NCBI GenBank assembly: GCA_003557645.1
Contig: PWNV01000014.1
Location: forward strand, 17,989 to 81,988
From: Candidatus Nealsonbacteria bacterium
GTDB lineage: Bacteria; Patescibacteriota; Minisyncoccia; Minisyncoccales; PWPS01
DNA length: 64,000 bases
Reading direction: 5' to 3'
Below, piece by piece: positions 15,645-56,646 of this stretch. Made by a program: the position numbers and the translations under genes. Position 1 is the first letter of the stretch; every line of letters begins with the position of its first letter. The notes beneath the pieces are model-generated. The model did no database searches. It was not told the DNA's origin and saw only the letters and a program-made list of their open reading frames with translations.

Positions 15645-15718
15645 GCCCCGGTAGCTCAACTGGATAGAGCGTCGGTCTTCGGAACCGCAGGCTGGGGGTT
15701 CGAATCCCTCCCGGGGTA
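15645..15718 (+). tRNA. tRNA-Arg (anticodon UCG), G1:U72 wobble
   Basis: Hand-folded cloverleaf, anticodon loop cuUCGga, TTCGAAT T-loop. Confidence 0.7.
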
Positions 15719-15781
15719 CGGTTTGATTAATCCTAAAAATAATCACTTTCATTTTTTAATAAAAAATATTATAATTGTTAA

Positions 15782-16201
15782 ATGATTAAAAGGATATTGA
15801 TAATTGCCTGCATTCTCGCCCTTTTTCCTCTTATTTCCTTCGCAAATGGAGAAGAGGGTCTTGTTCCTTGTGGCCCAGGAACCGGTGTGGATTGTCAGTT
15901 ATGCCATCTGTTTGTAATTTTTGGCAATGTTGTTGACTTCCTCATGACACGATTAATCCCTGCAGCAGCCATCATCCTTATAATCTACGGTGGAATCATG
16001 ACCTATGTCCATTCTGCTAACCCCGAAGGATTTTCCTACGGGAAGAAAGTTATCCTTATGGCTATTGCGGGTGTCTTTATCGCTTACACAGCTTGGATTA
16101 TAATCGGTCTTATTCTTCAAGGGTTAGGAATGGTAGAAGACTGGGGATTTCATGATTGGTGGCAAAGCGGCCTTTACACAATAGAGTGTCCTGTCGATTA
16201 G
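15782..16201 (+). CDS. VirB2/TrbC-like pilin-family small membrane protein (signal peptide plus two hydrophobic helices)
   Basis: Signal peptide, GLVPCGPG...CQLCHLF motif, then LIPAAAIILIIYGGIMTYV / VILMAIAGVFIAYTAWIIIGLI helix-loop-helix; same domain at C-terminus of ORF 28084..31224. Confidence 0.55.
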   Translation: MIKRILIIACILALFPLISFANGEEGLVPCGPGTGVDCQLCHLFVIFGNVVDFLMTRLIPAAAIILIIYGGIMTYVHSANPEGFSYGKKVILMAIAGVFIAYTAWIIIGLILQGLGMVEDWGFHDWWQSGLYTIECPVD

Positions 16202-16216
16202 AGCATCTTCTTTACT

Positions 16217-16292
<76 letters not shown>

Positions 16293-16322: not shown

Positions 16323-16577
16323 ATGCTTACAAAAGAAGAAAAAGAAGAAATATTAAAAGATTACGAAGACACCGGTGGTTCAGAGGCTCAGATAGCCTTG
16401 CTCTCAGCAAAGATAAAGAAACTCTTTCCTCATTTCAAGGAAAGCCCCAAAGACCTGCACTCTAAAAGAGGGCTTTTAGAGGCAGTAAATAAAAGAAGGA
16501 AACTTCTTTCCTATCTCCGTAAAGAAGATGAAGAAAGATACAATAAACTTGTTAAAAAATTGGGCTTAAAAAAATAA
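16323..16577 (+). CDS. rpsO: 30S ribosomal protein S15
   Basis: Conserved S15 sequence; canonical rpsO-pnp linkage. Confidence 0.85.
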   Translation: MLTKEEKEEILKDYEDTGGSEAQIALLSAKIKKLFPHFKESPKDLHSKRGLLEAVNKRRKLLSYLRKEDEERYNKLVKKLGLKK

Positions 16578-19196: not shown

Positions 19197-21440
19197 ATGG
19201 AAGAAGACACAAACATCACACAAGAGGTCCGAACAATGAAAAAAGACCTCGCTGTTGCCCGGGAGGGGGGCGAAGAAAGTGTCGTTCCTTCTCCCAGTTC
19301 TAAAAAATCTCCTCAACCCAGAGATGACGAAGAAAGAAGAAGAGAAGAAGAAGTAATAAGAAACGAAGAAAGAAGGAAGGAAGAGAAAAAGCGCAAAGAG
19401 CGACTAGCTGAAGAAGAAAAAATAAGAGAGATTGAAAAAGAGAAAATTTCAACATGGATAAATGATATTCAAAAATCCAAACAAGGGATTAGAGGCAAGA
19501 TTGCAAAAGAGATAGAGTCTTTAAAGAAGGAAATTGAAAATAAAATTCGCGAAGAGGAGGAAAAGGGTCGTAAACTGGAAGAAATACTACAAAAAAAGGA
19601 GTCGTTTGAGACAAAGGAAAATCTTTTCAAAAAGAGCATTCTTAAGCTAGAAGAAAAAAAAGATGCACTAAAACTAAAAGAAGCGAGTTTTAAAAAGCAA
19701 ATCAAAGAAATAGAGAAGATAAAGAAAGAATCAGAAAAAAAAGAAGATATCATCATAAAAGAAGAAGAGTTAAGCGAGAGAAAAAGAGAAGTAACTCAAA
19801 AAAAATGGGACACAGAAAAAGATCTCATACGAACTAAGAAAACAACTCATGCTATTGACTTGAAAAAACTCTACCTTTCCCTTCAAGTAGGTAGAGAAGA
19901 GAGAGAAGTCGAGAAATTAAAAACAGAAAGAGAAGCTTTGGGTCTTCAGCTTTCTATTCTTGTTCCTCAAAACAAAATTTCTTTTCTAGAAGAAAGGATC
20001 AACCTCTATGATCAAATATTAGGCCTTTTTCAAGCTCGGAAAAAAAGAATAAAGGATAGATTAAGAAAAGTAGTTCAGGCAGATAAGAATATCAAAGAAA
20101 GGTTTGTTGATATAAAGGAAAAGCTTGCACAAACAAGCAGCAACGAAGAATTGGAATCCCTTGAAAACGAGAGATGGAAAATTGAAGAGAAAAAGAGACA
20201 GATTAAAGAAGAGGCTTGGGAGTGGCAAGAAACAATAAAGAAAACAGAAGAAAAAATAAAAATAATTGAAACCAAAAAGAAGTCTGCGGAAGAGAAAACT
20301 CTTTCCCTGCGAAAAGAAATACAGCAAAACGAAAAATCTCTGCAAGAAAAAAGAGCCCTGATAGAGACTCTTCAAAATAAAGAAAAGAGCTTAAGAGAAA
20401 AAGAAGAGGAGGACATCAAAGAAAAGAAACGTCTCATCGTCCTTAAGAGGAGAGAATTTCTCCTAAAAGACCCTGTTTACAGGAAAAAGATTGTTGCAAA
20501 ACGAGTAGATCTTTTAAGCAAGATCTGTAGCGCTATAGAAGAAAAAAATAAAATTAAAGCAGAGCTACGAAGTCTTTTAGAAAAGGAAAGAGAAATTGAA
20601 TCTGAATTAAAAGAAACCCAAAAAAAGGAAGATGAGCTAAAGAAAGAGAAAGAAGAAGTGGAGAGAAGAGAGAGGATAGCAAAAGACCCGCAAGAAGTCA
20701 GAGAAATGGAAGAAAAGAGGTGGAAGATAGGAGAAGAAAGAAGATCTGTAGAAAAAGAGGTTCTAGAAATTCAAGAAAAATTAAGTCCTTTTACAGAGAA
20801 AAGAAAAGAAGCTGAAAAAGAATACGCTGTTCTTTCAGAGAAAAAAACAAAAATAATTAAACAAGAAGCTTCTCTTGCGTCTAAGTTACGAAGATGGATT
20901 AAAGCAGAAGAGCAAAGAAAAGAGATAGAAAAAAGAAGATCTCAGATAAACAGGAAAAAAGAAAATATTTCTAATGAAAAGGAAGAAAAAGAAAAAGGTA
21001 TAGAGGGAGTTGAGAAAAAATTGAACAATATACTAAAAAGGGAGAGTGAAGTAGAAAAGGACGTTCGATGGATAGAAGAAAAAATACAAGCCATGAACAC
21101 CGAATCAAAAGAAAGAAGAAATGAAGTTAAAAAAATGTGGCAGTTAGAAGATAAAAGAAGGGAGATAGAAAAGATGAAATGGGAGCTACAAGAAAAAGTA
21201 GATGAAAGCGGGAAAGAAAAAGAAAAAATTGAACAACAATATCAACTCCTTCTAGATGAAGAAAGTCGCCTGCTCAAGGAGAAAGAAGGCTTTAAAGAGA
21301 AAGAAGCACTCCTATCACTAGAAAAAGAAAAAGAGGAGATAGAGAAGATGATGGAAGAAGAAGACAGCGAAGTTCTTGAGAAAAAATTCGTAGAAATCGC
21401 ACATCAAATGATAAGCGAACTTCAAAAAACGGTCTCTTAA
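19197..21440 (+). CDS. Giant Lys/Glu-rich coiled-coil protein with Trp-containing periodic repeats
   Basis: Repeats such as ENERWKIEEKKRQIKEEAWEWQE, KRWKIGEERRSVEKE, KMWQLEDKRREIEKMKWELQEK; no enzymatic motifs. Confidence 0.6.
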   Translation: MEEDTNITQEVRTMKKDLAVAREGGEESVVPSPSSKKSPQPRDDEERRREEEVIRNEERRKEEKKRKERLAEEEKIREIEKEKISTWINDIQKSKQGIRGKIAKEIESLKKEIENKIREEEEKGRKLEEILQKKESFETKENLFKKSILKLEEKKDALKLKEASFKKQIKEIEKIKKESEKKEDIIIKEEELSERKREVTQKKWDTEKDLIRTKKTTHAIDLKKLYLSLQVGREEREVEKLKTEREALGLQLSILVPQNKISFLEERINLYDQILGLFQARKKRIKDRLRKVVQADKNIKERFVDIKEKLAQTSSNEELESLENERWKIEEKKRQIKEEAWEWQETIKKTEEKIKIIETKKKSAEEKTLSLRKEIQQNEKSLQEKRALIETLQNKEKSLREKEEEDIKEKKRLIVLKRREFLLKDPVYRKKIVAKRVDLLSKICSAIEEKNKIKAELRSLLEKEREIESELKETQKKEDELKKEKEEVERRERIAKDPQEVREMEEKRWKIGEERRSVEKEVLEIQEKLSPFTEKRKEAEKEYAVLSEKKTKIIKQEASLASKLRRWIKAEEQRKEIEKRRSQINRKKENISNEKEEKEKGIEGVEKKLNNILKRESEVEKDVRWIEEKIQAMNTESKERRNEVKKMWQLEDKRREIEKMKWELQEKVDESGKEKEKIEQQYQLLLDEESRLLKEKEGFKEKEALLSLEKEKEEIEKMMEEEDSEVLEKKFVEIAHQMISELQKTVS

Positions 21441-21464: not shown

Positions 21465-24365
21465 ATGCAAAACGATACAAAACCAATCACTGCCGAACTA
21501 GAAGAAGAATTGTCTGTATTAAAAAAACTAGAAGAAAAGCTAGAAGAGTTAAAAGTTAGTCTTGTTGGTGCTGCAGAAAAAAAAGAACAAATCAAAAAGA
21601 GCTTGGACCTTATAAAAGAAAAGGAAAAAGAGATAGAAGAGAGAGAAAGAGAACTTGAGAAAAAAGGAGAGGAAGCACAGAACGAGAAAGAGAAAAGAGA
21701 GGCCGGAGAAGAAAGATGGAAGGTAGAAGATAAGCGCAAAGAAATTGAGAAAGATCGATGGGATTGGGAAAATAAAATTAAAGAGGTAGAAGAGAACATC
21801 TCCTCTCTAGAAAAAGAGAAAGAAGCTACTATCGAAAAAAAGAAGGAGGCAGAAGAAAAGGTTGATCAGCTTCAAAAAAACGCAGAACAGGAGGATGAAG
21901 AAAGTATCAAAACGGCAATAGAAAGAAAGAAAGAGGAAGAGTCCTTGGCTCTTGAAGAAAAGAAAACCTTAGCTGTGAAAAAGGAGAAGGCAAAGGAGGT
22001 TTTAAAAGAAATAAAGGAAAAAGAAAAGGAAATAGAAAGAACCGAAAGAGATCTAGAAGGAAAAGAAGAGGCAGAAAAAGATTTTTCTGAAAAAAAGAAA
22101 CTTAAGGAAAAAAGGTGGGAAGCAGAAGATCAGCGTAAAAAAATAGAAGAAGAAAGATGGAAAATTGAAGAAACTGTCTCCTCTATAAATGAAAAAATTG
22201 AAAAGAAAAATACTAAACTAAGCAGACTAGAAGATGAGATCGAATCACTGCAAAGACAAAAAGACGAAGCAGAGGTAATTGCAGGAATCAAAGAAACGCC
22301 AAAACCAGAGGCTGATCTTGAGAAAAAGGAAAAAGAACCTTTAACCGGAGATCTTGAAGAAAAAATAGTCGAGAAGAAGGAATCTCTCTCTGAAGAAAAA
22401 GAAACTCTTTTTGCAAAAAGAATGGAGCTCTCCGACAAGCTTCGTGAAACAAAGAAAAAAGAAAGAGCGACAGAAAAAGAAAAAATAAAAATTGAGAGAG
22501 AAGAAACAGCCGTAAAAGGAACAAGTAAAGAGAAAGAGATAACTGAGAAAAAATGGGCGGTTGAGGAAGAAAGAAGATCTACAGAACAGATAAGATGGGA
22601 TTTAGAGAAGGAGCTAGGAGATGTTAATAAAAGAATAGAAGAAATCAAGAGAAAAGAGAAAGTTATTAGAAAAAAGGAAGAGGAACTAGCAAAAAGAAGA
22701 GAAGAGAGAGAAAGAGAAAGGGAGATAAGGCAAAGAGAAAGAGAAGTAACTTCTAAACTCCAAGACAAGGATCTCTCTTTAACACAACAAAAGAAGCTCC
22801 AGCTAGAAAAAATGGGTCTCCTAAAAGAAAAGCTAAGTGATCAGTTCTATCGATACAAAGAAGAAAAAAAACTTTTAGAAATTGAAATTGACAAGCTCTC
22901 ACAAAAGGAAAAAGAAAACGAGAGAAAGTTGGAAGAGGCTTATGAAGAAGAAAACTACGCAGAGAAAAAAAAGAATGAGATTGAGGCAAAGGAAAAAGCA
23001 ACACACAATGTAAAAGAAAAAGAAGAAATAGAAAAAAGCAGATGGGAAGCAGAAGAGGAAACGAGAGAAGCTAAAAGAGTTGTCTGGGATATTAAGGAAA
23101 GATTGAACGAAATAAAGAAAAGAAGTCGCAGAGCACACACAAAAAAATGGAAAGTTTCCACCAAGGAAAAGAGAGTTCAAGAAAAATGGCACAGCCTCGC
23201 TCGTAAAGAAGAAAGAGCTAGGGTTTCTCTGGAAAAAGCAAAAATAAAAGAAAAGATTAAATCTATTGAGAGTGAAAGGAGGACTCTTGACCTAGAAATA
23301 GTTAAGACAAAGGAAAGAAGAGATCATTTACAAGAAAAGATCGCTACTGTTATTGAAAAAGAAACTGTTATTGAAAAGAAAAAGAAAGAAATCGAAGAGG
23401 AAGAAACAGCCGCCAAAAACCCTGAAGAAAGAAGGGAGAAAGAAAAAGAGAGATGGAGAGTGGAAGAAAAAAGGAGAGAAATTGAGAAAGAAAAATGGTC
23501 ATTACAAGAAAAGATCAAAACAATAGAAAAAGATCTATACTCTTCTGAGCTGCATTATCAGCAAACGCTAAACAAAGAAGAAAACTTAAAGAAGAAAGAA
23601 TCCTCTCTTTCTAAAAAAGAAAAAGAGCTAATAGCCAAAGAAAGCAAGAGAGAGAAAGCTAAAGAGCTAAAAAGATTGCAGGCAATTAAGGGCAAGATCG
23701 AGGAGAAAAAAGAAAGCTTAATTGACGAAGAAAACCAACTAAAAGATTCTCTTAAAGAAATGAAGGAAAAAGTGAAAGGAATGAAGAAGGTTATGCACGA
23801 TATTGAAGAGGAAGAAGAATTCATCGAAGAACCTGAAGAAAGAAAAAAAGTAGAAGAAAAAAGATGGAAAGCAGAAGAAGATAAGCGCGAAACAGAAAAA
23901 AAGATCTGGGAATTAGAAAACAGATTAGCGGAAATTGAAACGGAGAGAAAGGGCTTTGATCTTATTAAAAAAAGAGAATCAGAAATCCAAGCAGAACTAG
24001 AAAAACTAGAATCTCTTTTAAGAAGAGAGAATGATGCTTTTGAAGAAGATTACACTGACGACCTAGAAGATGAGGAGGAAGCCACAGAAGAAATAGATCA
24101 AAGTTTAAGTAAAGAATCTTTTCGAGAAAGAAAAAAGAGAGAAATCGAAGAGGAAGATAGCGATGAAGAAGAAGATTATGAAGATGAAGAAGAAGATTAT
24201 GAAGATGAAGAAGAGGATGATGAGGAGAGAAAAGACAAAGATGAAGAAGAATATTATGAAGATGATGAAGAAGACGATGAGGAGGATGATGAAAAAACTC
24301 CATCAGAGTCAGAAGAAAAAGAGAAGAAAGATCCTAATATCTCTGACCTAGATTTTAAGTTTTAA
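21465..24365 (+). CDS. Giant Lys/Glu-rich coiled-coil paralog (six about 140-aa-period W repeats) with poly-acidic DYE tail
   Basis: ERWKVEDKRKEIEKDRWDWE, KRWEAEDQRKKIEEERWKIE, KKWAVEEERRSTEQIRWDLE, SRWEAEEETREAKRVVWDIK, ERWRVEEKRREIEKEKWSLQ, KRWKAEEDKRETEKKIWELE; same frame as upstream ORF, separated by one TAA. Confidence 0.6.
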   Translation: MQNDTKPITAELEEELSVLKKLEEKLEELKVSLVGAAEKKEQIKKSLDLIKEKEKEIEERERELEKKGEEAQNEKEKREAGEERWKVEDKRKEIEKDRWDWENKIKEVEENISSLEKEKEATIEKKKEAEEKVDQLQKNAEQEDEESIKTAIERKKEEESLALEEKKTLAVKKEKAKEVLKEIKEKEKEIERTERDLEGKEEAEKDFSEKKKLKEKRWEAEDQRKKIEEERWKIEETVSSINEKIEKKNTKLSRLEDEIESLQRQKDEAEVIAGIKETPKPEADLEKKEKEPLTGDLEEKIVEKKESLSEEKETLFAKRMELSDKLRETKKKERATEKEKIKIEREETAVKGTSKEKEITEKKWAVEEERRSTEQIRWDLEKELGDVNKRIEEIKRKEKVIRKKEEELAKRREEREREREIRQREREVTSKLQDKDLSLTQQKKLQLEKMGLLKEKLSDQFYRYKEEKKLLEIEIDKLSQKEKENERKLEEAYEEENYAEKKKNEIEAKEKATHNVKEKEEIEKSRWEAEEETREAKRVVWDIKERLNEIKKRSRRAHTKKWKVSTKEKRVQEKWHSLARKEERARVSLEKAKIKEKIKSIESERRTLDLEIVKTKERRDHLQEKIATVIEKETVIEKKKKEIEEEETAAKNPEERREKEKERWRVEEKRREIEKEKWSLQEKIKTIEKDLYSSELHYQQTLNKEENLKKKESSLSKKEKELIAKESKREKAKELKRLQAIKGKIEEKKESLIDEENQLKDSLKEMKEKVKGMKKVMHDIEEEEEFIEEPEERKKVEEKRWKAEEDKRETEKKIWELENRLAEIETERKGFDLIKKRESEIQAELEKLESLLRRENDAFEEDYTDDLEDEEEATEEIDQSLSKESFRERKKREIEEEDSDEEEDYEDEEEDYEDEEEDDEERKDKDEEEYYEDDEEDDEEDDEKTPSESEEKEKKDPNISDLDFKF

Positions 24366-28083: not shown

Positions 28084-31000
28084 ATGAAAAAACTTTTTCT
28101 CCTTTCTGCTCTCGTTTGTTTTCTCGCTCTTTCTTTTAACTTCGTGCTGGCAGACGACCCCCCTAAATGTACTCCCAAATGTGAGTGCATTTATGCTGAA
28201 ACTGAGCCCGAGCATGCAGGATGTGGTTTTCCAGAGTGTGGAGGAGTGGTAATAGAGTACTGGTATGATACAAGATGTGGCACGGGTTTTTGTTATGAAG
28301 TTGAAAACGAGTCCAACGGACCCTGGGAAGACGCTAGGCCTGAATGTAATTGGGGTTGGTCTTGTCATCCGGGATGCTTAGATCTTCCCACACCTGACTA
28401 TTATTGGGCTGATCCGGGAGAAACAATTAAACAAAAAGATTATCCTATCGCCTCTCAGTACCCATACGATGAAACTCCAAACGAGAGAGTATATCTTCCT
28501 GTTAAGCTTGGTTGGGACCATATAAGAGGATGGATGCACCCAACAGGACCTAAGTCTTATCGTATACAAATAGACGGGACAACCAGAGATTATCCCCCTC
28601 CTTACTCCTATCCTCCCGCTGACCCGTCCGACCCTGATCCTCCTGGCGGCCCAGGACCATCCCCTCCCGCAGAGGGATTTCTTACTTGGCCAGTTGATAA
28701 TATTTTTAATGTTAGTGATTACTACGCTCAAGACAGACGGGCAGCATCTTTTCCTTATCTCACAGACTATCACACTGGAATTGATTTTTTTGGTGGCAAC
28801 GTCCCGATATATGCAGCGGGCAACGGAGAAGTAGTAAGAGTAAACAGAAGCCTCCAGGCAGGGATGGGAAGATGGGTCTTGATCAAGCACCCCGGCATAA
28901 CCTCCACCGATGGAAGAACTGTCCTTACACGCTATCTCCACTTAAAGAGCATTGATCCCAATCTCAACGAAGGAGATATGGTCACTGCAGGACAACAAAT
29001 AGGAATAATGGGAGGAACAGGAAGTAGTGAAAATAGTTACGCCATACATCTTCACTGGGATGTTTGTTTTGGAAGTTGTAGGTACAGTAACTGGCCTAAT
29101 GAATTTGATGACCCTCTTAATTACATTACTCGTGATCAAAGGTGGGCAGACTTTATAGAAGCAAGAAGAAGTCACCACAATCACGGAAGAGAAAATTACT
29201 ATTGGCCGGGAACTGTGCCTATTTATATAAGTAATAAAGACACCGACCCCTTCGATCTTTACAACACCCCTCCTCCAACCACTTCTCTTAACAGCTCATC
29301 TTCTTCTTGTTCTTTGGTGACAAACGACTCTCTTCCCTCTAACGAAAATAATACCTCCTTTTTATCAGAGCTATCCTCTTCTTTCGTTTTGACATCAAAC
29401 TCTTTAGAAATAACTCTTGAAGAGTGTCTCCGCACCAATCGATTTATTGCTGATAAGTGTCTTCTACGGTCAGACTATAATCACAACTGGAGAGTGCAGG
29501 GCTGTTGTGACACAGAGTGTAACTCGTGTCACCCCACATGCTGGTCAGAATATGATTTTATAACAGACGAAGCTCCTGAACCTATTGAGCCATATGATCC
29601 TAGCTGGGCTGGAGATTACGGAATGGCAGGAGGTCATCATAATCCACTAGGCTTCCAAGACGCAAACTCAAAATGGTGTGATCCAGAAAACGAAGACGAT
29701 TATAAGGGTTATCTCCTTCTTGCTTTTAAGGAAATAAACGGAAATATGGTCTGTCATCCTGATCGTCTTCGTCCCGATGGCGTTTGTCGTCCTATTCTTG
29801 TCCGAGATGACAATCCTGTTCCTATCCACAGAGGACCTCCTCCCACAGAGATTATTAATATAAGAGAAGACCTTTTCAATGAAATAGGAGAAATATTTGC
29901 CTGGAGGGTGGCTGCTTGTGAGGATCATAAAATGGAAGACTGCTCTGACTATAGCCAGAAATGGAGACTTATTGTTGGAGACACAATAAAAAACCCTCAT
30001 GATTTTCAACCCGCAAACGACCCTGAAGGAGAAACTCCTATTGGAATTTATCCAGACGCTACTTTTAGATGGAACTGGCCCTTTGGAGCACACTCTTTTT
30101 GGTTCCAGCTTGCCGTAGATAACGAAAATCAAGACGTCATAATAGAAGAACTCCTAACCACTAACAGCTTTACCGTTCCAGCAGCAACTTTGGGAATTGA
30201 AAATCGCTTTATCTGGAGAGTTAAATCTTGCTACGATGAAGATGGAGAGAACTGCCTTGAAGAGTGGACAGAAAACATTCACTTTACTACTACGGGAAGA
30301 CCTCCTAACCTAGAGGAGACAGCCGTTCCTCCCGACGGAAGTGAGGAAGTGACTATTCCCCTTACCATAGAGTGGGAATCTGTCCCTGGAGCACAGTCAT
30401 ACATCTTTAGAATAGATGGAGAAGAGAGGCGTGTTTCTTCAGAAAAAATTCATCTTAATTATCCACAACTTAAAACAGGGACTGAGTACTCATGGACCGT
30501 AAAAACTTGTGCTGATCCGGGGGGCTCTGCTTTTTGTGGAGGATTTTGGTCTCCTGAAGTAAAATTTACAACTCTAGTTCTTCAGCCCCCTACAAATCCT
30601 AGCCCTGAAGACAATTCCACTCTTTTCACAGACACAAGAAGCATTAACGCTTCTTGGAGCAAGGCCAGAGGAGCAAACTATTACGAGTATGAGATTAGCT
30701 ACCCAGGAGGAGAAACAGAAAGTGATATTATTTCTGGAACATCCTTTTATGTCAACCTTTTTGACTTGGGAACATATAATTGGAGAGTTCGGTCTTGTCT
30801 TGACAGTAACTGCGAAGACAGCAGCGCTTTTTCCAACTGGAGCTTCACCTACGAAGAAATAGAAGCAGATGGAGTGGGTCTTGTTCCTTGTGGAAGGGCA
30901 TACGACAGCCCTAGCACTCCATGGAACGAGAGAGAGCCTTGTCAGTTGAAACATCTATTTATATTGTTTAAAATATTGACTGATTTTGTCCTTTGGAACC

Positions 31001-31224
31001 TTTTCCCAGTTGCTCTTGTTTTAATGGTTTTAACTACTGGTGCTTTGTTTTCGTTCGCTTCACCTTTGGGACCAAGCGTACTAGCAAGAGTAAAACTGTT
31101 ATGGAAAGGAGTAGGAATTGGTTTTGTTGTTCTTTTCTTTGGTTGGATTATTTTAACAATAGGTCTGTCAATGATAGGATACGACGCAGGTATCTACGGT
31201 CCGTGGTGGCAAATCAACTTTTAA
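28084..31224 (+). CDS. Giant secreted multidomain protein: Cys-rich N-domain, Pro-rich linker, M23 peptidase, four FN3-like WRVxxC repeats, C-terminal VirB2-like pilin/membrane domain
   Basis: Signal peptide; DYHTGIDFF...HLHWD M23 motifs; repeats FAWRVAACED / FIWRVKSCYD / YSWTVKTCAD / YNWRVRSCLD; C-terminal GLVPCG...CQLKHLF plus two TM helices matching ORF 15782..16201. Confidence 0.75.
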   Translation: MKKLFLLSALVCFLALSFNFVLADDPPKCTPKCECIYAETEPEHAGCGFPECGGVVIEYWYDTRCGTGFCYEVENESNGPWEDARPECNWGWSCHPGCLDLPTPDYYWADPGETIKQKDYPIASQYPYDETPNERVYLPVKLGWDHIRGWMHPTGPKSYRIQIDGTTRDYPPPYSYPPADPSDPDPPGGPGPSPPAEGFLTWPVDNIFNVSDYYAQDRRAASFPYLTDYHTGIDFFGGNVPIYAAGNGEVVRVNRSLQAGMGRWVLIKHPGITSTDGRTVLTRYLHLKSIDPNLNEGDMVTAGQQIGIMGGTGSSENSYAIHLHWDVCFGSCRYSNWPNEFDDPLNYITRDQRWADFIEARRSHHNHGRENYYWPGTVPIYISNKDTDPFDLYNTPPPTTSLNSSSSSCSLVTNDSLPSNENNTSFLSELSSSFVLTSNSLEITLEECLRTNRFIADKCLLRSDYNHNWRVQGCCDTECNSCHPTCWSEYDFITDEAPEPIEPYDPSWAGDYGMAGGHHNPLGFQDANSKWCDPENEDDYKGYLLLAFKEINGNMVCHPDRLRPDGVCRPILVRDDNPVPIHRGPPPTEIINIREDLFNEIGEIFAWRVAACEDHKMEDCSDYSQKWRLIVGDTIKNPHDFQPANDPEGETPIGIYPDATFRWNWPFGAHSFWFQLAVDNENQDVIIEELLTTNSFTVPAATLGIENRFIWRVKSCYDEDGENCLEEWTENIHFTTTGRPPNLEETAVPPDGSEEVTIPLTIEWESVPGAQSYIFRIDGEERRVSSEKIHLNYPQLKTGTEYSWTVKTCADPGGSAFCGGFWSPEVKFTTLVLQPPTNPSPEDNSTLFTDTRSINASWSKARGANYYEYEISYPGGETESDIISGTSFYVNLFDLGTYNWRVRSCLDSNCEDSSAFSNWSFTYEEIEADGVGLVPCGRAYDSPSTPWNEREPCQLKHLFILFKILTDFVLWNLFPVALVLMVLTTGALFSFASPLGPSVLARVKLLWKGVGIGFVVLFFGWIILTIGLSMIGYDAGIYGPWWQINF

Positions 31225-31233
31225 TTTAAATAA

Positions 31234-31920
31234 ATGTCTGATAAAAAAATAGTTATTGTAAGTTTCTTAATGATAGCTTTTCTGGTTCTCTCTACATATA
31301 TCCACAGTCAAAGAACTAGAGATATTCAAGAGAACGGCCATCCCGTGCTGCCAAGCAAAGAGTTCTCTTCTTCCGATCATTCTCTCCCCAAGTTAGAAGA
31401 CATTATCAGTGAAAGATCTGGAGAAAATCAAGGAGAGAGACTAAGAGAGCCCGAAGAAATCGAGTATAAAGAATTTATAGATCAAGATAACAAAATAACG
31501 GTAGAGTACCCTTCACACTGGAAAGTTACAGAAGATGCAACTCCCTTAGGGCAAGATAATATAGATTTCCTTTTTGTTGCTTTCTTAGAAGGATCCTACG
31601 AAGTAAGGGCTGGAATGACCATTTTGAGAGGACAAAACTTAGATGAAGACAGTAATTTGCTTGAAAAAACAGAAAGTACTTTTGCCGATGCCGCTAGCCG
31701 AGAAATTTTAGAAGAAAAAGAAACCGAAAACGGGAAGATATTTAAGACAAAATATAAAGATTCATTAGGAGAGATTCGTGGCAAAGAAAAGGTTATGCAG
31801 GCTAATGATAGTAGTTACATGGTCTCCGTTTTTGTGATGTCTCACTCCTGGGAAGATTTCTTACCTCAAACAGATCATATAATTAATTCTGCCACAATTA
31901 GAACAGAAAACGACTTATGA
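31234..31920 (+). CDS. Hypothetical bitopic protein (N-terminal TM plus periplasmic/extracellular domain), VirB8-like topology
   Basis: Single TM (IVIVSFLMIAFLVLSTYI) then about 200-aa soluble domain; size and topology as VirB8 but no sequence motif recognised. Confidence 0.35.
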   Translation: MSDKKIVIVSFLMIAFLVLSTYIHSQRTRDIQENGHPVLPSKEFSSSDHSLPKLEDIISERSGENQGERLREPEEIEYKEFIDQDNKITVEYPSHWKVTEDATPLGQDNIDFLFVAFLEGSYEVRAGMTILRGQNLDEDSNLLEKTESTFADAASREILEEKETENGKIFKTKYKDSLGEIRGKEKVMQANDSSYMVSVFVMSHSWEDFLPQTDHIINSATIRTENDL

Positions 31921-33035
31921 TAAAAAAACCCACCTTACTAAAAATAACAAAGCTTGCACTTGTCTTTCTATTTTTTTCTTTTCTTCCTTTTACTTTTTCT
32001 TTTGCCGGCGAAGATCCGGCTGAAACAGAAGTTATCTGGCCCACCTCTCCTGTAGGAACAGAGTTTACTCGAGACATGCCATTGCACGAGCTTATCGCTT
32101 ATTTTTATGAATGGGGTATTGTTATCGGAATACTGGCAGTGTTTGGTATTTTGGTTTTCGCCGGATTTCAATACACAATTTCTGCTGGAAAGCCTGCCAT
32201 GATGACAGACGCCCTAAGTAGAATTCAAGCTGCAATAATTGGTCTTGTTCTTCTTTTATCTTCTTGGCTAATATTAAGCATTATTAACCCTGAATTGGTA
32301 AAAATTTCTCCTATCACATTTAGTATTTCTGATGAAATACGTGGATTAAATCTTGACGTTGATGATCTCTACGGAGCACCAGTCGACGCTGTAGAGTTCT
32401 ATCCTAAAAAGAATTATGAAGGAGATATTATCTCCACATTATATACTCCAAAAAGATCAACATATGAAATAAGAATAGAACAAGTTCATTATTTAAGTCA
32501 GGGTGGAACAGTTGCTGCTCCAGGAGAAGGAGAAGCAATTCCTCCAGAATCAGCAAGAGGATTTACAGCTATTCCTCCTTCCGAGATGATACAGTGGGAA
32601 CAAGGAATAGATCTTGATTATCAAAGATACAGTCATCCTCCTCTAGATGGAGTACTCGCAGGAACAGGATCATATCTCTCCTTTGGACAAAAAATGATTC
32701 CAGATCCCGAAGGTCTTTATAAAGAAGGAGGATCTTCTTTAGTTGATCTTTACGAAGAAACAACCAGGGGTTTTTGGGACTGGCTTACGGGAACGAAAAT
32801 TAATTGTGAAAGCAAATTAAGTCGAGGAATAATTTCCACGGTTGATGTTAGAGAAGGAATTTTTGGTTTTGACAGAGAAATAAACTGCATGATAATTGAA
32901 CGAAGACACGTGCCTTTAGATGATGCCTTGTTTGGTAGTCCTGGTGAAAACGCGGTAAGAGTTTCTCCCGTTTTTTGCGATGGAGGTGATCCGTGTTTCT
33001 ACAATCCTCCGGAAGACGAAATTCCAGAAGATTAA
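31917..33035 (+). CDS. VirB2/TrbC-like pilin domain protein with about 240-aa C-terminal extracellular extension
   Basis: Signal peptide, LHELIAYFYEWGIVIGILAVFGILVFAGFQYTISAGKP...IQAAIIGLVLLLSSWLILSIINP two-helix pilin pattern. Confidence 0.55.
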   Translation: MIKKPTLLKITKLALVFLFFSFLPFTFSFAGEDPAETEVIWPTSPVGTEFTRDMPLHELIAYFYEWGIVIGILAVFGILVFAGFQYTISAGKPAMMTDALSRIQAAIIGLVLLLSSWLILSIINPELVKISPITFSISDEIRGLNLDVDDLYGAPVDAVEFYPKKNYEGDIISTLYTPKRSTYEIRIEQVHYLSQGGTVAAPGEGEAIPPESARGFTAIPPSEMIQWEQGIDLDYQRYSHPPLDGVLAGTGSYLSFGQKMIPDPEGLYKEGGSSLVDLYEETTRGFWDWLTGTKINCESKLSRGIISTVDVREGIFGFDREINCMIIERRHVPLDDALFGSPGENAVRVSPVFCDGGDPCFYNPPEDEIPED

Positions 33036-33065
33036 ATGTAAGTTATTTTTGATTAAATATAAAAA

Positions 33066-35306
33066 ATGAATTTTTTAAAGGAAAAGTGTAAATCTAAACT
33101 GAGACACGTGTTCACTCTACTATTTTTTCTCTTCTTCCTTTTTATTCCGGAGATAACAGAGGGGTTTGCTTTTAGTCTTGGAGAAAAGCAGCTTGCAGGT
33201 CTTTCTGAAGTAGTGGGTCCAGTTTTGGCTCTTGGTATCTTTCTTTTTGCCTTCCTTATTTTTTCCTACGGCCTTTTAGTGGTAGCAACCGAATATTTGC
33301 TAGCAATTATCATCTCTACTCCCGATGCTCTTACGCTGAGTGCAGAAAAAGCTCCTTTTGTAGATATAGGATGGCAGTTTATTCTAGGAATATCCAACAT
33401 GCTCCTTATTCTTGCTTTTATTGTTATTGCTATCTCCGTTATATTAAGATTCGAAAATCTTGGCTTTAAAAAGGCATTTCCTAGACTAATCGGTGTTGCC
33501 CTTCTTATAAACTTCTCACTGGTGTTTGTAGGGATGGGAATTGATATCTCGAATGTTTTTTTTAGCACTATTGAAAATGAGCTTATTCTAGAGATGGATC
33601 CTGAGTGCTCTTGGCAGGCCGCAGGTCTGGGAGATTGTCCAGAAGACACCAGCCCAAGTGCCGAAGGGAATTGTCTAGGACCAAATCCTGGAGGATCTCT
33701 TTGTTGCTGTTATGAGGCAGAAACCACCACCCTTATATCCGAATCAATGGAGATGCTCTTCTCTGGGGCAGCTCAAAGAATAATTAATTTTGGCGCTATT
33801 CTCGCTGGTTTTGCAGCGGCAATGTTAATACCTTATGTATCTGTAGGGGTGCAGTTTGCAGTTATTATAGCTGGTGTAGTCTGGTTCTCCGATATTATGG
33901 CAATGCTTACTCAGGGACTAATAATGTTTCTTCTTGCAGGAGCTTTCTTTCTCTTTTTTATTATTTTCCTTGTACGAATCTTTGTTATTCAAATACTTGC
34001 TATCGTCGCTCCCCTTGCCTTTATTTGTTTGATTTTCCCAGGAACACAGTTATATAAATATTTTGAAATGTGGGTAAGAAGTCTTCTTCAGTGGCTTTTT
34101 GCTGGTATTGCCTTCCTTTTTCTGCTCATCCTTGGCTTTAATATGGTTGGTATGGTAGATGGTCTCGTAGGGGTTATCGGAGATTTAGAAGTAGAAGGAG
34201 AAAATACCTGGGTTGTTGCAATAAAGAACGTCTTCTTAGACAGTGGTTTTGTTTACTATATCGTCCTTCTTGTTTATTTTGTAACTATTCTTTTTTTCGG
34301 TAAAAAATTCATTCCAGCTGGAGTAGATGCAATGATTAGTCAAGCTAAGTCTGTTAGCTCTTCGGTTACCGGAATAGCAGGAAAAGCATTTAATCGTAGC
34401 CTTGTACCAAAGAGAGCGCAAGATCAAGCCAATGTTCCCGAAGGAGCTGAGAACATGGCAAATTGGATGAGAAAGAGTAGAGTGCCTGGAGCAAGACTAG
34501 CAGCCCCTACTGTTGCTAGATGGGCTAAGAGAAGAAAGGACGAGGCGGAAAAAGAAGCAAAAGAGGTATCAAGAGACTTTCGTCGTATGGATCAAGTAAG
34601 AAGAGCGGGCGGAACCCAGCAAGAATTAAAGGCGTTATCTTCTACAGGAACTAAGAGACAACGCCACGGGGCAGATTTAGCTTGGGAGGCTAAGATAGGT
34701 GAATTAGAAAAGAAGAAAAAAGAAGTAGAAGAAAGTAGAGGAAAAGCTCCATCAAGATCTGAGGTTGAAAAAGATCTTCCAATAAGAACAGGTGAATCTA
34801 CAACAGACTGGAAGATAAGAGTCGGTAAGGAGCTAGACAGAAGAGAAAGGCAACACAACGCCCCTGTAAGAAGAGTTGAAAAAGAGATAGAATCTTGGAA
34901 TCGAATGGCCCCTCATTTGGGAGCTCCTAATGAAGATGATATTGCAAAAAAGATTCCAAAGGTGGAAGGAGAATCTAGAACGCAAAGAAAACAGAAAATA
35001 CAAAAAGCAATGGACGAAGCCTTAAACAAGCATAGAAGTAAAGTAGGAAAAACCGTTAATGATATGTCTCCAAGTGAACAAGCAAGCATGTTGTCTTCTG
35101 CCTATGATAATAAGACGGTTGTTACTCACATGACAAAAAAGAAGGCTAATATTGATGCGCTGGTGGAGAAGAAAAATTATAAGAATCTAAGAAGAACAAT
35201 CAAAACTTTCAATAAGCTTCATCCTAAAGTACGACAAAAGAGAAGAAAAGTCTTCGATACAATAACAGCCACTCCCGCGTGGAAAGAAGCTAAAAGAATA
35301 AAATAG
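33066..35306 (+). CDS. VirB6/TrbL/TcpH-like polytopic membrane protein with Cys-rich loop and long basic C-terminal tail
   Basis: Signal/TM1 plus at least 7 further TM helices, extracellular loop CSWQAAGLGDCPEDTSPSAEGNCLGPNPGGSLCCC, about 300-aa Lys/Arg-rich cytoplasmic tail. Confidence 0.55.
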   Translation: MNFLKEKCKSKLRHVFTLLFFLFFLFIPEITEGFAFSLGEKQLAGLSEVVGPVLALGIFLFAFLIFSYGLLVVATEYLLAIIISTPDALTLSAEKAPFVDIGWQFILGISNMLLILAFIVIAISVILRFENLGFKKAFPRLIGVALLINFSLVFVGMGIDISNVFFSTIENELILEMDPECSWQAAGLGDCPEDTSPSAEGNCLGPNPGGSLCCCYEAETTTLISESMEMLFSGAAQRIINFGAILAGFAAAMLIPYVSVGVQFAVIIAGVVWFSDIMAMLTQGLIMFLLAGAFFLFFIIFLVRIFVIQILAIVAPLAFICLIFPGTQLYKYFEMWVRSLLQWLFAGIAFLFLLILGFNMVGMVDGLVGVIGDLEVEGENTWVVAIKNVFLDSGFVYYIVLLVYFVTILFFGKKFIPAGVDAMISQAKSVSSSVTGIAGKAFNRSLVPKRAQDQANVPEGAENMANWMRKSRVPGARLAAPTVARWAKRRKDEAEKEAKEVSRDFRRMDQVRRAGGTQQELKALSSTGTKRQRHGADLAWEAKIGELEKKKKEVEESRGKAPSRSEVEKDLPIRTGESTTDWKIRVGKELDRRERQHNAPVRRVEKEIESWNRMAPHLGAPNEDDIAKKIPKVEGESRTQRKQKIQKAMDEALNKHRSKVGKTVNDMSPSEQASMLSSAYDNKTVVTHMTKKKANIDALVEKKNYKNLRRTIKTFNKLHPKVRQKRRKVFDTITATPAWKEAKRIK

Positions 35307-35317
35307 CATCAATTACT

Positions 35318-35725
35318 ATGCCTAAAAAAATAATCTATCCTAAAAATACCAAAGAAGTAATTCAGAGAATTATCGAAGATAGTAATAGGTTAAAATCAAT
35401 GCAAGAAAAGGCCTTTGAGAGATGGAGTAATTCTAAAGAAGGAGAAGAAAGTGAGAAAATTATGTTTTCCTCTCCTGGAGGTGTTATTTCTGAAGCCATC
35501 TCAGACTTTGCGCACGGTGAAATCAAAAAAGAAGATCTGGTCCCTTTGTTTGTTGAGCGCCTTGAAATTAGTGAAAAAAGAGCTCAAAAAATTAAAAAAA
35601 TCTTAAGTACAGAAATATTTCCCCTCCTCTCCTCTTCTGGTGGTAAGAAAAGCAAAAGTGTTTCTTCTGAAGGAGAAAAGAAAACAAAAAAAGAAAAAGA
35701 CCCTTATAGAGAGCCCATAACATAA
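35318..35725 (+). CDS. Hypothetical small Lys/Glu-rich protein
   Basis: ORF only; no recognised motifs. Confidence 0.35.
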   Translation: MPKKIIYPKNTKEVIQRIIEDSNRLKSMQEKAFERWSNSKEGEESEKIMFSSPGGVISEAISDFAHGEIKKEDLVPLFVERLEISEKRAQKIKKILSTEIFPLLSSSGGKKSKSVSSEGEKKTKKEKDPYREPIT

Positions 35726-35747
35726 CTCTCTTTATTGTTATTAAAAA

Positions 35748-35775
35748 AGACCGGTACTCTTTAGTGTACCGGTCT
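35748..35775. terminator. Bidirectional terminator, perfect 10-bp palindrome
   Basis: agaccggtac-N8-gtaccggtct followed by T-rich tract; between convergent genes. Confidence 0.7.
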
Positions 35776-35783
35776 TACTTCTT

Positions 35784-37028
35784 CTAATAAAAGAACTTTA
35801 GCCTCCTTTTCCAGGAAAGCTTTGTTTTTGGTTTATACTTTTTCTTGCCGTGATCAGCATCCTCATCGTCGTCATCATCGTCGTCATCATCATCGTCAAT
35901 CTTCTGCCTACTCTCTTTTTCCTTCTCTACTTTCTCTATCTTTTGCTGCTCTTCTTTTTCTCGTTTTTTGTCTTCTTCTTGAATATTTTTTCCTTGTGGC
36001 ATTCTGAGGAATCCCGCAATTGTATTAAGGAAGCTTTTCTCTAGTGATCCGCCTCCCTCAACATCAATATTTACGTAACTACCATTTTCCATTGCCAATT
36101 TTTTCTTGATCATTTCCCTTGCCCAGCGAGCAAAGACTTCCTTCATCTCTGGGTCTTCTCTTATTTCCTTGGCAACTTGACGGGGAGTCTTTCCATAAGC
36201 TTCCGCCATCATATAGACAACGGTCTTAGCGATTTCTCCGGACCTTGCTTTGGCTTTAAATTCTTGCTTTTGTTCGCTGGCCAAAGCCTTTGAGATCTCT
36301 TCGTCCATCGGGGAGATATCAAGGAAAGTAACTCCCTCCTCAGCTATCTTCACTCCCCATTTACGAAGCGTCCCTCCTTCTTCTCTTAACAGTTTGCTCT
36401 CCTTGAGATACTCCCAAATCTTTGCACTTTTAAGTTTGTATAAGTCTTCAAATGAATAACTCGAAACAAAAGAGCGCATCACTCCATCGATTTGGGACAA
36501 CGCTTCCTCTAGTGAGTTCTCCGGAGAGACAAAGAGGAAAAGATAAGGATTTTCAATTTTTAAAGTAACTAAATATTTTACCCTAACTTGAAACCTCTCT
36601 GGCCTTTTCGTTTCAGCGTTCTCTATTTCCGAAGAGTAAACCTCAGGCTTGAGCTTTACTTCATTGAACTCTTCCTTTGCTCCTTTTATACCTTCTTTAC
36701 GCCCATGTTTGTCACTCCATGAGATAGAATAAGTATAAGTTTTTTTGAAGGGAAAGAGTCCAAAATAAAAGAGACCACCAAAAATCCTTCCAGTAATTTT
36801 CTTCCTTACTGCTCCTACTGCTTCGTCGTGCCCTTCTCGTAGCACAGTAAAATTTTCATCCATAAAATGATCTCTCCAGACCATTTTAAAGGAATGAAAC
36901 TGACCAAAGGACATTATTGCCCGAGCCGTTCCTTCTTTAACACTTCCAAAGGAGTGTCTTAGAAAAAAATAAATAAAAGAAACAATACTTCCAAGAAAAA
37001 GAAGAATCAAGACAGTCCATATAATCAT
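35784..37028 (-). CDS. SPFH/band-7 domain membrane protein with C-terminal poly-Asp tract
   Basis: N-terminal TM, KWGVKIAEEGVTFLDISPMDEEISKALASEQKQEFKAKARSGEIAK pattern of SPFH C-region; 9xD+E+D stretch. Confidence 0.5.
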   Translation of the reverse strand: MIIWTVLILLFLGSIVSFIYFFLRHSFGSVKEGTARAIMSFGQFHSFKMVWRDHFMDENFTVLREGHDEAVGAVRKKITGRIFGGLFYFGLFPFKKTYTYSISWSDKHGRKEGIKGAKEEFNEVKLKPEVYSSEIENAETKRPERFQVRVKYLVTLKIENPYLFLFVSPENSLEEALSQIDGVMRSFVSSYSFEDLYKLKSAKIWEYLKESKLLREEGGTLRKWGVKIAEEGVTFLDISPMDEEISKALASEQKQEFKAKARSGEIAKTVVYMMAEAYGKTPRQVAKEIREDPEMKEVFARWAREMIKKKLAMENGSYVNIDVEGGGSLEKSFLNTIAGFLRMPQGKNIQEEDKKREKEEQQKIEKVEKEKESRQKIDDDDDDDDDDDEDADHGKKKYKPKTKLSWKRRLKFFY

Positions 37029-37150
37029 CTCTACACCTCCATTTTTAAGTTGTTAAGTGTACATTTTCTGCCTTTATTTTTTTTATCATTAAATCTTGCT
37101 TTTGTCAAGTACTCTCTTTACTTGCCTTCTCTTTGTGCTAAAATATTTAC

Positions 37151-37567
37151 ATGAGATTCAAAGTTCCAAGAAATATTGAGCATGAAGCAAAAGTAGTGGG
37201 GCCCGCTACTTTTCAGCAAATTCTTCCTATTGGAGGGGCCTCTTTTATTATCTTTATTCTTTACCTTTTACTTAGAGAAAAAAGCATGTTCCTCTTCTTT
37301 TTTCTCTCTACTATCGTTGCTTCCGGCGGCTTCGCTTTGTCTTTTTTAAAAATCAATCAGATGCCCTTATCCCAATACATCAAAAATTACATTTCTTTCT
37401 CCCTTGCTCCGCGAGAGTATATCTGGAAGAAAAAGGAGAAAACTATTAATATATCTACAGAAAGAAAAGCCACGGTAGTAAAAGAAAAAATAGAGAAAGA
37501 AGAGGAAAACAAGCCAAGAAAAGAAAGTCAAATAAATAGAATCAGCTCAAAAATTGATTCACTTTAA
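37151..37567 (+). CDS. PrgI/VirB3-like small membrane protein
   Basis: MRFKVPRNIEHEAKVVGPATFQQ N-terminus then two hydrophobic helices; located immediately upstream of VirB4 as VirB3/PrgI genes are. Confidence 0.5.
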   Translation: MRFKVPRNIEHEAKVVGPATFQQILPIGGASFIIFILYLLLREKSMFLFFFLSTIVASGGFALSFLKINQMPLSQYIKNYISFSLAPREYIWKKKEKTINISTERKATVVKEKIEKEEENKPRKESQINRISSKIDSL

Positions 37568-37569
37568 AT

Positions 37570-38199
37570 ATGCCCTTAAGCACTCAAGAATTACTTGAAA
37601 TTAAGCAGATTAGAGAAGGTGTTCTCGTCCTCAAAAACAACCAGCTACGAGGAATTTTGATGGTTTCGTCAATAAATTTTGTTTTAAAATCTGAAGAAGA
37701 GCAAAAAGCAACTATTTATCATTTTCAATCCTTCTTGAATTCCTTGGATTTCTACTTACAGATAGTTATTCAGTCTAGAAGAACAAATATTAGGGGATAT
37801 ATTGATAAAATCAAGAAAATAGAAAAAGAACACACTAATGAGCTTTTACAGTTTCAAATAGCGGGTTATATAAAGTTCTTGGAAGACTTTGTAAGAAAGG
37901 AAGATGTTTATAGTAAAAACTTTTTTGTAATCATTCCTTATGGTGTTGGAGAGACTAAAACATCAACACGTGATGTTATGGCTGCTAGAAAAGGAACCCT
38001 TACTGATGAGATTTTTGAAAGGGCAAGAGATCAGCTATATCAAAGAATGGAGTTTGCCGCTTTGGGTCTTCGTAGGTGTGGTCTCCACTCCGCTCCATTA
38101 ACTTCTTCTGAAATTATAGAATTACTTTGGAGTATGCATCATCCAAAACAAGCAGAAAAGGGATATTTCCCAGAAATACCTGATGAACTTATTATGTAA
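37570..38199 (+). CDS. VirB4/TrsE/PrgJ-like ATPase, N-terminal fragment (split gene, part 1)
   Basis: REGVLVLKNNQLRGILMVSSINFVLKSEEEQKATIYHFQSFLNSLDFYLQIVI matches VirB4 N-terminal region; ends 17 nt inside next ORF in different frame. Confidence 0.6.
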   Translation: MPLSTQELLEIKQIREGVLVLKNNQLRGILMVSSINFVLKSEEEQKATIYHFQSFLNSLDFYLQIVIQSRRTNIRGYIDKIKKIEKEHTNELLQFQIAGYIKFLEDFVRKEDVYSKNFFVIIPYGVGETKTSTRDVMAARKGTLTDEIFERARDQLYQRMEFAALGLRRCGLHSAPLTSSEIIELLWSMHHPKQAEKGYFPEIPDELIM

Positions 38200-56567: not shown

Positions 56568-56573
56568 AATGTG

Positions 56574-56646
56574 TGGGCGCGCCCTGACTTGAACAGGGGA
56601 CCTCGTCGATGTCAACGACGCGCTCTGCCGACTGAGCTACGCGCCC
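56574..56646 (-). tRNA. tRNA-Val (anticodon GAC)
   Basis: gggcgcg acceptor, anticodon loop uuGACau. Confidence 0.8.

Follow-up and report, generated by a model that had tools for sequence, protein, structure and literature searches.

A small gene of 139 codons between two tRNA genes of a patescibacterial genome raises the question of what its product is and what its cysteines do. The protein carries a motif, GLVPCG, and shortly after it a second one, CQLxHLF, followed by hydrophobic helices. An earlier note on the same DNA had taken this signature as the mark of a family of VirB2/TrbC-like pilin domains and had suggested that GLVPCG, directly after the predicted signal-peptidase site, is a dedicated maturation site. 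Here we ask how far the signature extends, to which family the proteins bearing it belong, and whether the cysteines are better accounted for by processing or by disulfide bonds.

The window, i. e. the whole stretch of 64,000 nucleotides that was analysed, has a G+C content of 36.7% and 19 tRNA genes. The housekeeping genes in it include dnaA/dnaN, yidC, rnpA, gyrA and genes for ribosomal proteins. It is patescibacterial (CPR), and the nearest genome relative is a Candidatus Nealsonbacteria MAG in which the local gene and tRNA order is identical. The 139-aa protein is present on a JGI sediment contig, too. The hosts may inhabit reducing sediments.

The six-frame translation of the window was scanned with regular expressions. 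GLVPCG and CQLxHLF occur together exactly twice. In ORF 15782-16201, GLVPCG covers residues 26-31 (nt 15857-15874) and CQLCHLF residues 38-44 (nt 15893-15913); in ORF 28084-31224, GLVPCG is found at residues 932-937 (nt 30877-30894) and CQLKHLF at residues 953-959 (nt 30940-30960). Two long hydrophobic helices follow in both copies. The two domains align with 33% identity over 116 aa (E 3e-11), and thus the motif block is homologous and not a chance resemblance. The signature had been assigned to three or four genes. These two, the latter at its C-terminus, do carry it, but ORF 31917-33035 and the ORF starting at 63795 are free of the motif. The wider pilin-like family does comprise four genes in the window, but the second pair are cysteine-free members of PF18895.

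The stand-alone gene (15782-16201, forward strand), recognized by the motif scan, by its near-threshold score against PF18895 and by its relatives, represents what we call class A, the 4-Cys form. The N-terminus of its product, MIKRILIIACILALFPLISFANGEE, is a Sec-type signal peptide of about residues 1-21, and by the -3/-1 rule cleavage is predicted after the SFA ending at residue 21. The layout of the class is GLVPCG, a loop, CxxC[H/D]xF, a two-helix hairpin and a C-terminal WWxIxCP. In the window protein helix 1 extends over residues 40-76, the loop over residues 77-80 and helix 2 over residues 81-114; the tail contains W126, W127 and C136 (nt 16187-16189).

A word-indexed search with the 139-aa protein yielded 19 relatives. 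In the alignment with them G26, L27, V28, P29, C30, G31, C38, H42, F44, P81 and W126 are invariant, and C41 and the C-terminal C136 (I-x-C-P) nearly so. The profile built from this alignment was searched against 1.84 billion cluster representatives and gave 24,972 matches at E<=1e-3, 5,875 at E<=1e-10 and 320 at E<=1e-30. Among the best 150 of the 24,972 matches, 133 match PF18895 and 36 match PF04956 (E<=1e-3, best 1e-14). Together with the location of two of the window genes inside a T4SS cluster, this bears out the assignment to VirB2/TrbC-like pilin domains. The class A protein itself scores 25.5 bits against PF18895 (T4SS_pilin), just under the gathering cut-off of 26.6, with profile positions 16-71 matching residues 55-111; the precomputed domain list for the exact 139-aa protein (P0001) includes PF18895. 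Against PF04956 it scores 14 bits (E 0.058), below the gathering score of 27.9. The matches of the 36 relatives to PF04956 indicate that the homology is one at the superfamily level, outside the PF04956 model. The 71 positions of the PF18895 model map to residues 40-111. The model hence spans the hairpin and omits both the GLVPCG/CxxCH cap and the W..CP tail. Neither class A nor class B is covered by an NCBIfam model.

AF2 predicts a helical hairpin formed by residues 40-76 and 81-114 with a pLDDT of 90-97 in the core and lower values at the Cys loop (61-74) and in the tail (63-70). The architecture of PF18895 proteins, namely a signal peptide and two hydrophobic helices with a short loop, is thereby present in both the sequence and the model. 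When two AF2 models were compared with the PDB by Foldseek, generic helical hairpins came up, none of them significant, and a profile search of PDB sequences gave only spurious transmembrane matches, e. g. the neurotensin receptor. Hence the likeness to the solved VirB2/TraA pilins rests on sequence profiles and is putative at the level of the fold. Among the library proteins there are also polyproteins with 7-8 tandem copies of the domain (P0047, P0061). Such tandem-repeat proteins, and likewise fusions to large passengers, sit poorly with a simple pilus subunit.

The genomic position of the class A gene is itself conserved. It is preceded at a distance of 62 nt by tRNA-Arg(tcg) (15645-15719, forward strand), which is part of a conserved syntenic block, and followed 15 nt after its stop codon by tRNA-Lys(ctt) (16217-16292, forward strand); rpsO (16323-16577) comes next. 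The coordinates agree with the earlier description of a stand-alone copy between these two tRNA genes, 12 kb away from the island. The slot, with cca on the opposite strand, tRNA-Arg(tcg), pilin gene, tRNA-Lys(ctt), rpsO, a gene for a NYN-domain protein and then pnp, was found in about 19 of 34 genome loci. Across loci the stop codon of the pilin gene often lies 0-30 nt from tRNA-Lys, and the gene in the slot is small (about 140-190 aa) or extended at its C or N terminus by up to about 600 residues. The region is syntenic across genomes, often within about 10 kb of the gene in the VirB6 position. The tRNA-flanked locus is deeply conserved and probably highly expressed.

The T4SS cluster of the window (ORFs 28084-40021) is of the monoderm type and lies immediately upstream of jag-yidC-rnpA and dnaA. 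It begins with the gene for a 1046-aa exported surface protein (28084-31224), followed by a 228-aa conserved cluster partner with a weak PsbP_2 match (31234-31920), a 372-aa pilin-like protein (31917-33035) and a 746-aa polytopic membrane protein (33066-35306), which has no Pfam or NCBIfam match and is assigned to the VirB6 position by its place in the order only. After a 135-aa protein and an SPFH protein encoded on the opposite strand come a PrgI/VirB3-like protein (37151-37567; PF12666, 42 bits), a TrsD-like protein similar to the N-terminal portion of VirB4 (37570-38199; NF041427, NF045975) and a VirB4-family ATPase (38183-40021; NF045971, 361 bits vs a cut-off of 325). All the genes given here with coordinates are on the forward strand. 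This order is common to about 50 metagenomic loci, where it reads: an M23-LysM gene (opposite strand), ksgA, the big protein with the class B domain, the 228-aa protein, class C, the VirB6-position protein, further genes, and then PrgI, TrsD and VirB4. Classes B and C are thus encoded together with T4SS components (PrgI, TrsD and VirB4). The window contains no gene for a coupling protein, a relaxase or a TraF/S26-type peptidase. A T2SSE ATPase (50387-51688) is part of a separate system.

The arrangement of the cluster agrees with what has been reported for Patescibacteria, whose T4SS is MPF-FATA-like, lies near dnaA and has VirB2-like pilins that were found with PF04956 and PF18895 (Quinonero-Coronel et al. 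2025, PMC12102498). Southlakia epibionticum cannot do without the T4SS or the genes for its pilins (Wang et al. 2023, PMC10633639; reviewed in PMC12857230). In the review the patescibacterial T4SS is only credited with the "potential to elaborate conjugative pili" (PMC12857230).

The second copy of the signature defines class B, the 2-Cys form. It is the C-terminal domain (30877-31221, forward strand) of the 1046-aa protein. This protein has a signal peptide, a Cys-rich N-terminus, an M23 peptidase domain (residues 229-327, nt 28768-29064) and, after it, five beta-sandwich-like repeats, each of which closes with WxVxxC...C. No repeats were found at the DNA level within the gene; the protein repeats are too diverged. 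The class B domain consists of GLVPCG, a 15-aa loop, CQLKHLF, a two-helix hairpin and a C-terminal WWQINF. Lys occupies the position that corresponds to C41 of class A, and the C-terminal Cys is absent. Taken alone the domain has no Pfam match. Class B was traced in 50 metagenomic loci. In all of them it is the C-terminal domain of an exported repeat protein of 576-1287 aa with WxVxxC...C ends, and the gene for this protein is the first one after ksgA. The signature of the class is GLVPCG, a 15-residue loop RxxDDPxTPWNEREP, CQ[ILF]KH[LI]F, the hairpin and WWQIxF at the C-terminus. In the large orthologues from the other loci, many of them incomplete at the N-terminus, the M23 domain was not detected; it therefore looks like a lineage-specific insertion in the window protein.

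Classes C and D lack cysteines in their pilin-like parts. Class C is represented by the 372-aa protein (31917-33035, forward strand), in which a PF18895 core (residues 64-123, nt 32106-32285) is followed by a C-terminal extracellular extension. It matches PF18895 with 31.1 bits, above the cut-off of 26.6, and is related to the 139-aa protein only via the helix-loop-helix core (hhalign probability 94.7%, 45 columns); BLAST gave no match between the two. The N-terminal pilin-like part contains no cysteine and neither of the two motifs, and the orthologues share a signature of their own, WPxSPxGT...YFYEWG...INPxLT. Class D begins at 63795 and runs to the end of the window at 64000 (forward strand). 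The entire region before the helices is visible in this truncated ORF of a small Cys-free pilin gene, and the motif is absent from it. The full-length product, as given by a database twin of the ORF (P0173), has 112 aa, is Cys-free and has PF18895 as its precomputed domain. A paralogue with 78% identity (P0174) is encoded on the same 86,865-bp contig, beyond the window.

The conservation of the cysteines is nearly complete. C30 and C38 are present in 166 of 166 aligned domains and C41 in 165 of 166, the sole exception being the class B copy of the window; every apparent absence of the C-terminal Cys turned out to be an alignment shift of 1-3 residues. Hence the paired cysteines that had been pointed out are both conserved, but a third and a fourth one, C41 and the C-terminal C136, had been overlooked. 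At position 42 His (n=136) or Asp (n=30) is found. The spacer between C30 and C38 has a bimodal length distribution with 6-8 or 14-18 residues and a full range of 4 to 234. In class B, C41 and the C-terminal Cys are missing while C30 and C38 are kept in 47 of 47 scored domains, for which the scan pattern itself demanded a residue other than Cys at position 41, and also in P0168 and P0169. This joint loss represents one evolutionary event in one clade. About 166 class A domains and the paralogues found in 85 loci were inspected for the loss of only one cysteine of a proposed pair, and no such case was encountered. Of 83 stand-alone proteins, 77 have an even number of cysteines in the mature region, most often 4, and overall there are 136 even and 26 odd counts. 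A Dsb-type oxidoreductase was not found in the window, which, like the possibly reducing habitat of the hosts, counts against disulfides; a literature search for patescibacterial Dsb or VKOR proteins gave nothing relevant.

As C30 and C38 are kept in both classes and C41 and the C-terminal Cys are either kept or lost together, a pairing of C30 with C38 and of C41 with C136 is the most economical one. Disulfides are favoured by the even cysteine counts and by the Cys-rich passenger domains, and the highly variable spacer length suggests that C30 and C38 close a surface loop. These patterns point to the disulfides C30-C38 and C41-C136 in class A. Two disulfides account for the way in which the cysteines are lost better than TrbC-like processing or cyclisation would.

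Two other interpretations start from the GLVPCG motif. GLVPC superficially resembles the lipobox L-[ASTVI]-[GAS]-C and follows soon after the signal peptide in many class A proteins, so that it could be a lipobox or a generic sorting signal of unrelated secreted proteins. This was rejected and is hardly conceivable: there is a Pro at position -1, the charged NGEE stands between the hydrophobic signal-peptide core and the motif, and in class B more than 900 residues precede the motif. Moreover, in a sample of 8,751 ORF segments with 778,585 residues from 85 related loci and the window, L[IV]PCG occurs 83 times, each time in an ORF that matches the pilin profile and never outside pilin-domain ORFs. 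The motif is thus not spread over many unrelated secreted proteins, the observation which, according to the earlier note, would have spoken against a pilin domain. The other interpretation is that of the earlier note itself, a dedicated maturation site analogous to TrbC processing or cyclisation. Spelled out, a specialised enzyme would cleave the protein there or join it to its C-terminus, as in the TraF-dependent maturation of TrbC/VirB2; in class B, cleavage would free the pilin from its passenger. The near invariance of six residues across proteins of 27-65% identity seems to exceed the needs of a simple turn, and a sequence that stays constant after a signal peptide as well as after a 900-aa passenger would suit recognition by an enzyme. 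Yet the tie to the signal-peptidase site does not hold. In the 1046-aa protein and its about 50 orthologues the motif is located 450-1170 residues into the exported protein, and many stand-alone relatives have long or Cys-rich stretches inserted between signal peptide and motif. With so variable a distance, GLVPCG belongs to the domain and not to the region of signal-peptide cleavage. Furthermore, no TraF/S26, sortase-like or other candidate peptidase is encoded in the window or recurs in the cluster, and many class A relatives run for hundreds of residues past the C-terminal Cys, which is incompatible with head-to-tail joining there. We therefore regard a maturation site as improbable.

The cysteines could also serve a purpose other than disulfide formation. 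C30, C38, C41, His or Asp 42 and the C-terminal Cys might form a site for Zn or Fe which clamps the termini. A CxxC at the start of a helix followed by His (136) or Asp (30), an exchange typical of metal ligands, would be in line with this, and since many of the hosts are anaerobic (sediment, groundwater) extracytoplasmic thiols could remain reduced. However, class B keeps C30, C38 and H42 and drops C41 and the C-terminal Cys, by which a four-ligand site is destroyed and one pair is left. The extra cysteines of relatives come in even numbers, and the flanking passengers are Cys-rich in the way typical of disulfide-bonded extracellular modules. A metal site is thus a quite improbable explanation. 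A different objection concerns the pilin function as such. Possibly the domain is a two-helix membrane anchor or a T4SS-docking module for diverse extracellular proteins instead of a polymerising pilin. At one or the other of its ends the module is joined to PKD, fn3, Flg_new_2, He_PIG, dockerin, apiosidase and M23 domains, it occurs in the 7-8 copies of the tandem polyproteins (P0047, P0061), class A is found outside the T4SS cluster amid housekeeping genes, and the patescibacterial T4SS pilus is itself only "potential" (PMC12857230). On the other side stand the sequence-profile homology to TrbC/VirB2, the predominance of small stand-alone forms (112-170 aa), the fixed positions of classes B and C in the VirB4 cluster and the finding that the in-cluster pilin genes are essential in S. 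epibionticum (PMC10633639). For the fused forms a role as an anchor is plausible, and in the case of classes B and C it overlaps with the interpretation that we prefer; as an account of the whole family it seems unlikely.

The interpretation that we prefer, and to which we assign a probability of about 0.7, is that the proteins are paralogous PF18895 pilins of the dnaA-proximal T4SS and form disulfide-capped hairpins, with class A as the likeliest major subunit and class B as an anchor or display module. Of this, the homology to hairpins of the T4SS_pilin/VirB2 type, the linkage to a VirB4 machine and the conservation of four or two cysteines in the segments next to the hairpin are shown; the steps that follow are inferred. 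The protein would be exported by the Sec pathway, the signal peptide would be removed, and the hairpin would insert into the membrane with both ends outside; the positively charged loop and the Lys/Arg-rich start of helix 2 would be cytoplasmic as in VirB2. All four cysteines would then be on the outer face. There C30-C38 would close a variable, exposed loop before helix 1, and in class A a disulfide between C41, at the start of helix 1, and the C-terminal Cys would staple the tail to the N-terminal end. Such a staple would resemble the head-to-tail cyclisation of VirB2/TrbC in its outcome, but would be formed by other chemistry, without a peptide bond. Class A would be the likeliest major subunit of a filament or conduit built by the VirB4 machine. 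In class B the same module would hold a large repeat protein at the surface or on the filament, as an anchor or for display, and class C would likewise anchor or display its extracellular domain on the membrane or filament. The M23 peptidoglycan peptidase on the class B protein of the window could serve a VirB1-like opening of the cell wall. For the pilin-like proteins of Patescibacteria in general, polymerisation is no more than a candidate property.

A more far-reaching proposal joins these elements: the disulfide between C41 and the C-terminal Cys replaces the cyclisation of VirB2/TrbC, C30-C38 closes a hypervariable loop that faces the host, and class A is the major subunit of an essential T4SS filament, probably expressed from a tRNA-punctuated transcript. 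We put this combination forward tentatively and consider it possible but doubtful. If it were true, a T4SS pilin would be stabilised in a previously undescribed way.

Earlier publications have described the family PF18895, have placed it in the dnaA-proximal T4SS clusters of Patescibacteria and have noted its multiplicity. The 4-Cys and 2-Cys classes with their fixed genomic roles, the cysteine signature outside the Pfam boundaries, the putative disulfide staple and the conserved tRNA-Arg/pilin/tRNA-Lys/rpsO block appear to be undescribed, as no description was found in the searchable literature; a search for GLVPCG matched only papers on cyclotides. Our results leave the published basic picture unchanged and add refinements and testable hypotheses. 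Few machines have been shown to be indispensable to Patescibacteria living as epibionts; the T4SS is one of them, and of its parts the pilin-like proteins are understood least. Their paralogues can now be sorted into conserved classes (4-Cys, 2-Cys fused and Cys-free), a likely disulfide cap is located outside the Pfam model, and concrete targets are available for proteomics, structure prediction and cryo-ET.

Among known systems, the PF18895 pilins of patescibacterial T4SSs are shared ground in several respects: a signal peptide and a hairpin whose two helices are joined by a short G-x-P loop, several divergent paralogues in each genome, and a location in or near a cluster of the VirB4/TrsD/PrgI/VirB6 type beside dnaA with no relaxase or coupling protein nearby. 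The difference is that the cysteine cap and the tail of the 139-aa protein fall outside the PF18895 model. The pilin-like protein of Mycoplasma ICEs (NF045849, Mbov_0395 family) is likewise small, has two helices and is encoded next to a VirB4 of the monoderm type. The class C protein matches NF045849 weakly (E 0.01, 15.5 bits, far under the cut-off of 40), and the proteins of that family lack the cysteine signature. Type IV pilins offer an analogy for the variable surface loop between C30 and C38 in their C-terminal, disulfide-bonded D-region. They differ in fold and in their dependence on a prepilin peptidase; a class III signal peptide (G|(F/M)xxxE, in type IV pilins G|F/M-T-L-I-E) is absent from the class A N-terminus.

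The most instructive comparison is that with TrbC/VirB2 (PF04956; TrbC of RP4, VirB2 of Agrobacterium). In these pilins a peptide bond joins the termini after proteolytic trimming. Like them, the class A protein is a small Sec-exported hairpin whose termini would lie outside and be brought together. In contrast to them, its termini are likely to be linked by a pair of cysteines, and its host is a monoderm.

The class A gene, which encodes the stand-alone pilin-like protein with four cysteines (15782-16201), lies between two tRNA genes; the order at 15645-16292 is tRNA-Arg(tcg), protein-coding gene, tRNA-Lys(ctt). This order is kept in many patescibacterial genomes (related loci L002, L005, L006, L009-L013, L025, L030-L033), and in about 12 of 20 loci tRNA-Lys is found 0-30 nt from the stop codon of the sandwiched gene. 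In the window this distance is 15 nt, with no terminator between the class A gene and tRNA-Lys (15645-16292). A TATAAT sequence upstream of the gene ends 6 nt from its ATG. The conserved sandwich, the short gap before tRNA-Lys, the lack of a terminator and the TATAAT close to the ATG together suggest that the class A gene is co-transcribed with the flanking tRNAs and that tRNA processing sets the ends of its mRNA, which is possibly leaderless.

The large class B protein of 1046 aa (28084-31224) carries its pilin-like domain behind a passenger part (28084-30876) that contains five repeats, each about 95 aa long and ending in W-x-V-x-x-C...C...W..F(T/D). These repeats are predicted to be beta-sandwich-like modules, each with a loop closed by a disulfide; the only Pfam match on the repeats was a sub-threshold one to Ig. 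The module is kept in the orthologues from about 50 loci. The protein also contains an M23 peptidase domain (28768-29064, aa 229-327). Its large orthologues at these loci are in many cases N-terminally cut, and no such domain was detected in them; the only M23 matches there came from a separate M23-LysM gene upstream of ksgA. The M23 domain thus appears to be a lineage-specific insertion.

Within the T4SS cluster the TrsD-like ORF (37570-38199) and the VirB4 ORF (38183-40021) overlap by 17 nt. A frameshift as the cause of this split was considered and rejected: the split recurs in related loci, where the ORFs overlap or abut. The two ORFs are thus genuinely separate genes.

Outside the cluster, two adjacent very large proteins of 747 and 966 aa (19197-21440 and 21465-24365) are encoded between pnp and the T4SS region. 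Both are extremely rich in Glu and Lys and coiled-coil-like; the motif E(E/K)RWK(V/I)E(E/D)(K/E)RR recurs in them, the tail is acidic, and neither has a Pfam match. ARAGORN called 19 tRNAs in the window versus 18 from Rfam at the gathering threshold; tRNA-Val(gac) (56573-56646), absent from the Rfam listing at that threshold, overlaps the 5' end of a pseudouridine synthase ORF (55875-56615). A Lamin-tail-domain protein (48712-49383) and a T2SSE-family (type IV pilus/T2SS) ATPase (50387-51688) are encoded amid ruvB, yebC and ruvC; they are part of a pilus system distinct from the T4SS.

Further pilin-like proteins lack cysteines. There are at least two such paralogues of 112 aa, P0173 and P0174, which are 78% identical. 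The ORF cut at the window end (63795-64000) is the first of them; the second lies beyond the window end on the source contig of 86,865 bp. Their genes, which may form a small pilin array, adjoin gyrA and a methyltransferase gene, distant from the T4SS cluster. The database proteins P0047 (820 aa) and P0061 (606 aa) are polyproteins, single chains of 7-8 tandem cysteine-free T4SS_pilin hairpins. Such a layout fits poorly with the role of a simple pilus subunit; the two proteins may instead be precursors that undergo processing, or pseudo-oligomers linked covalently.
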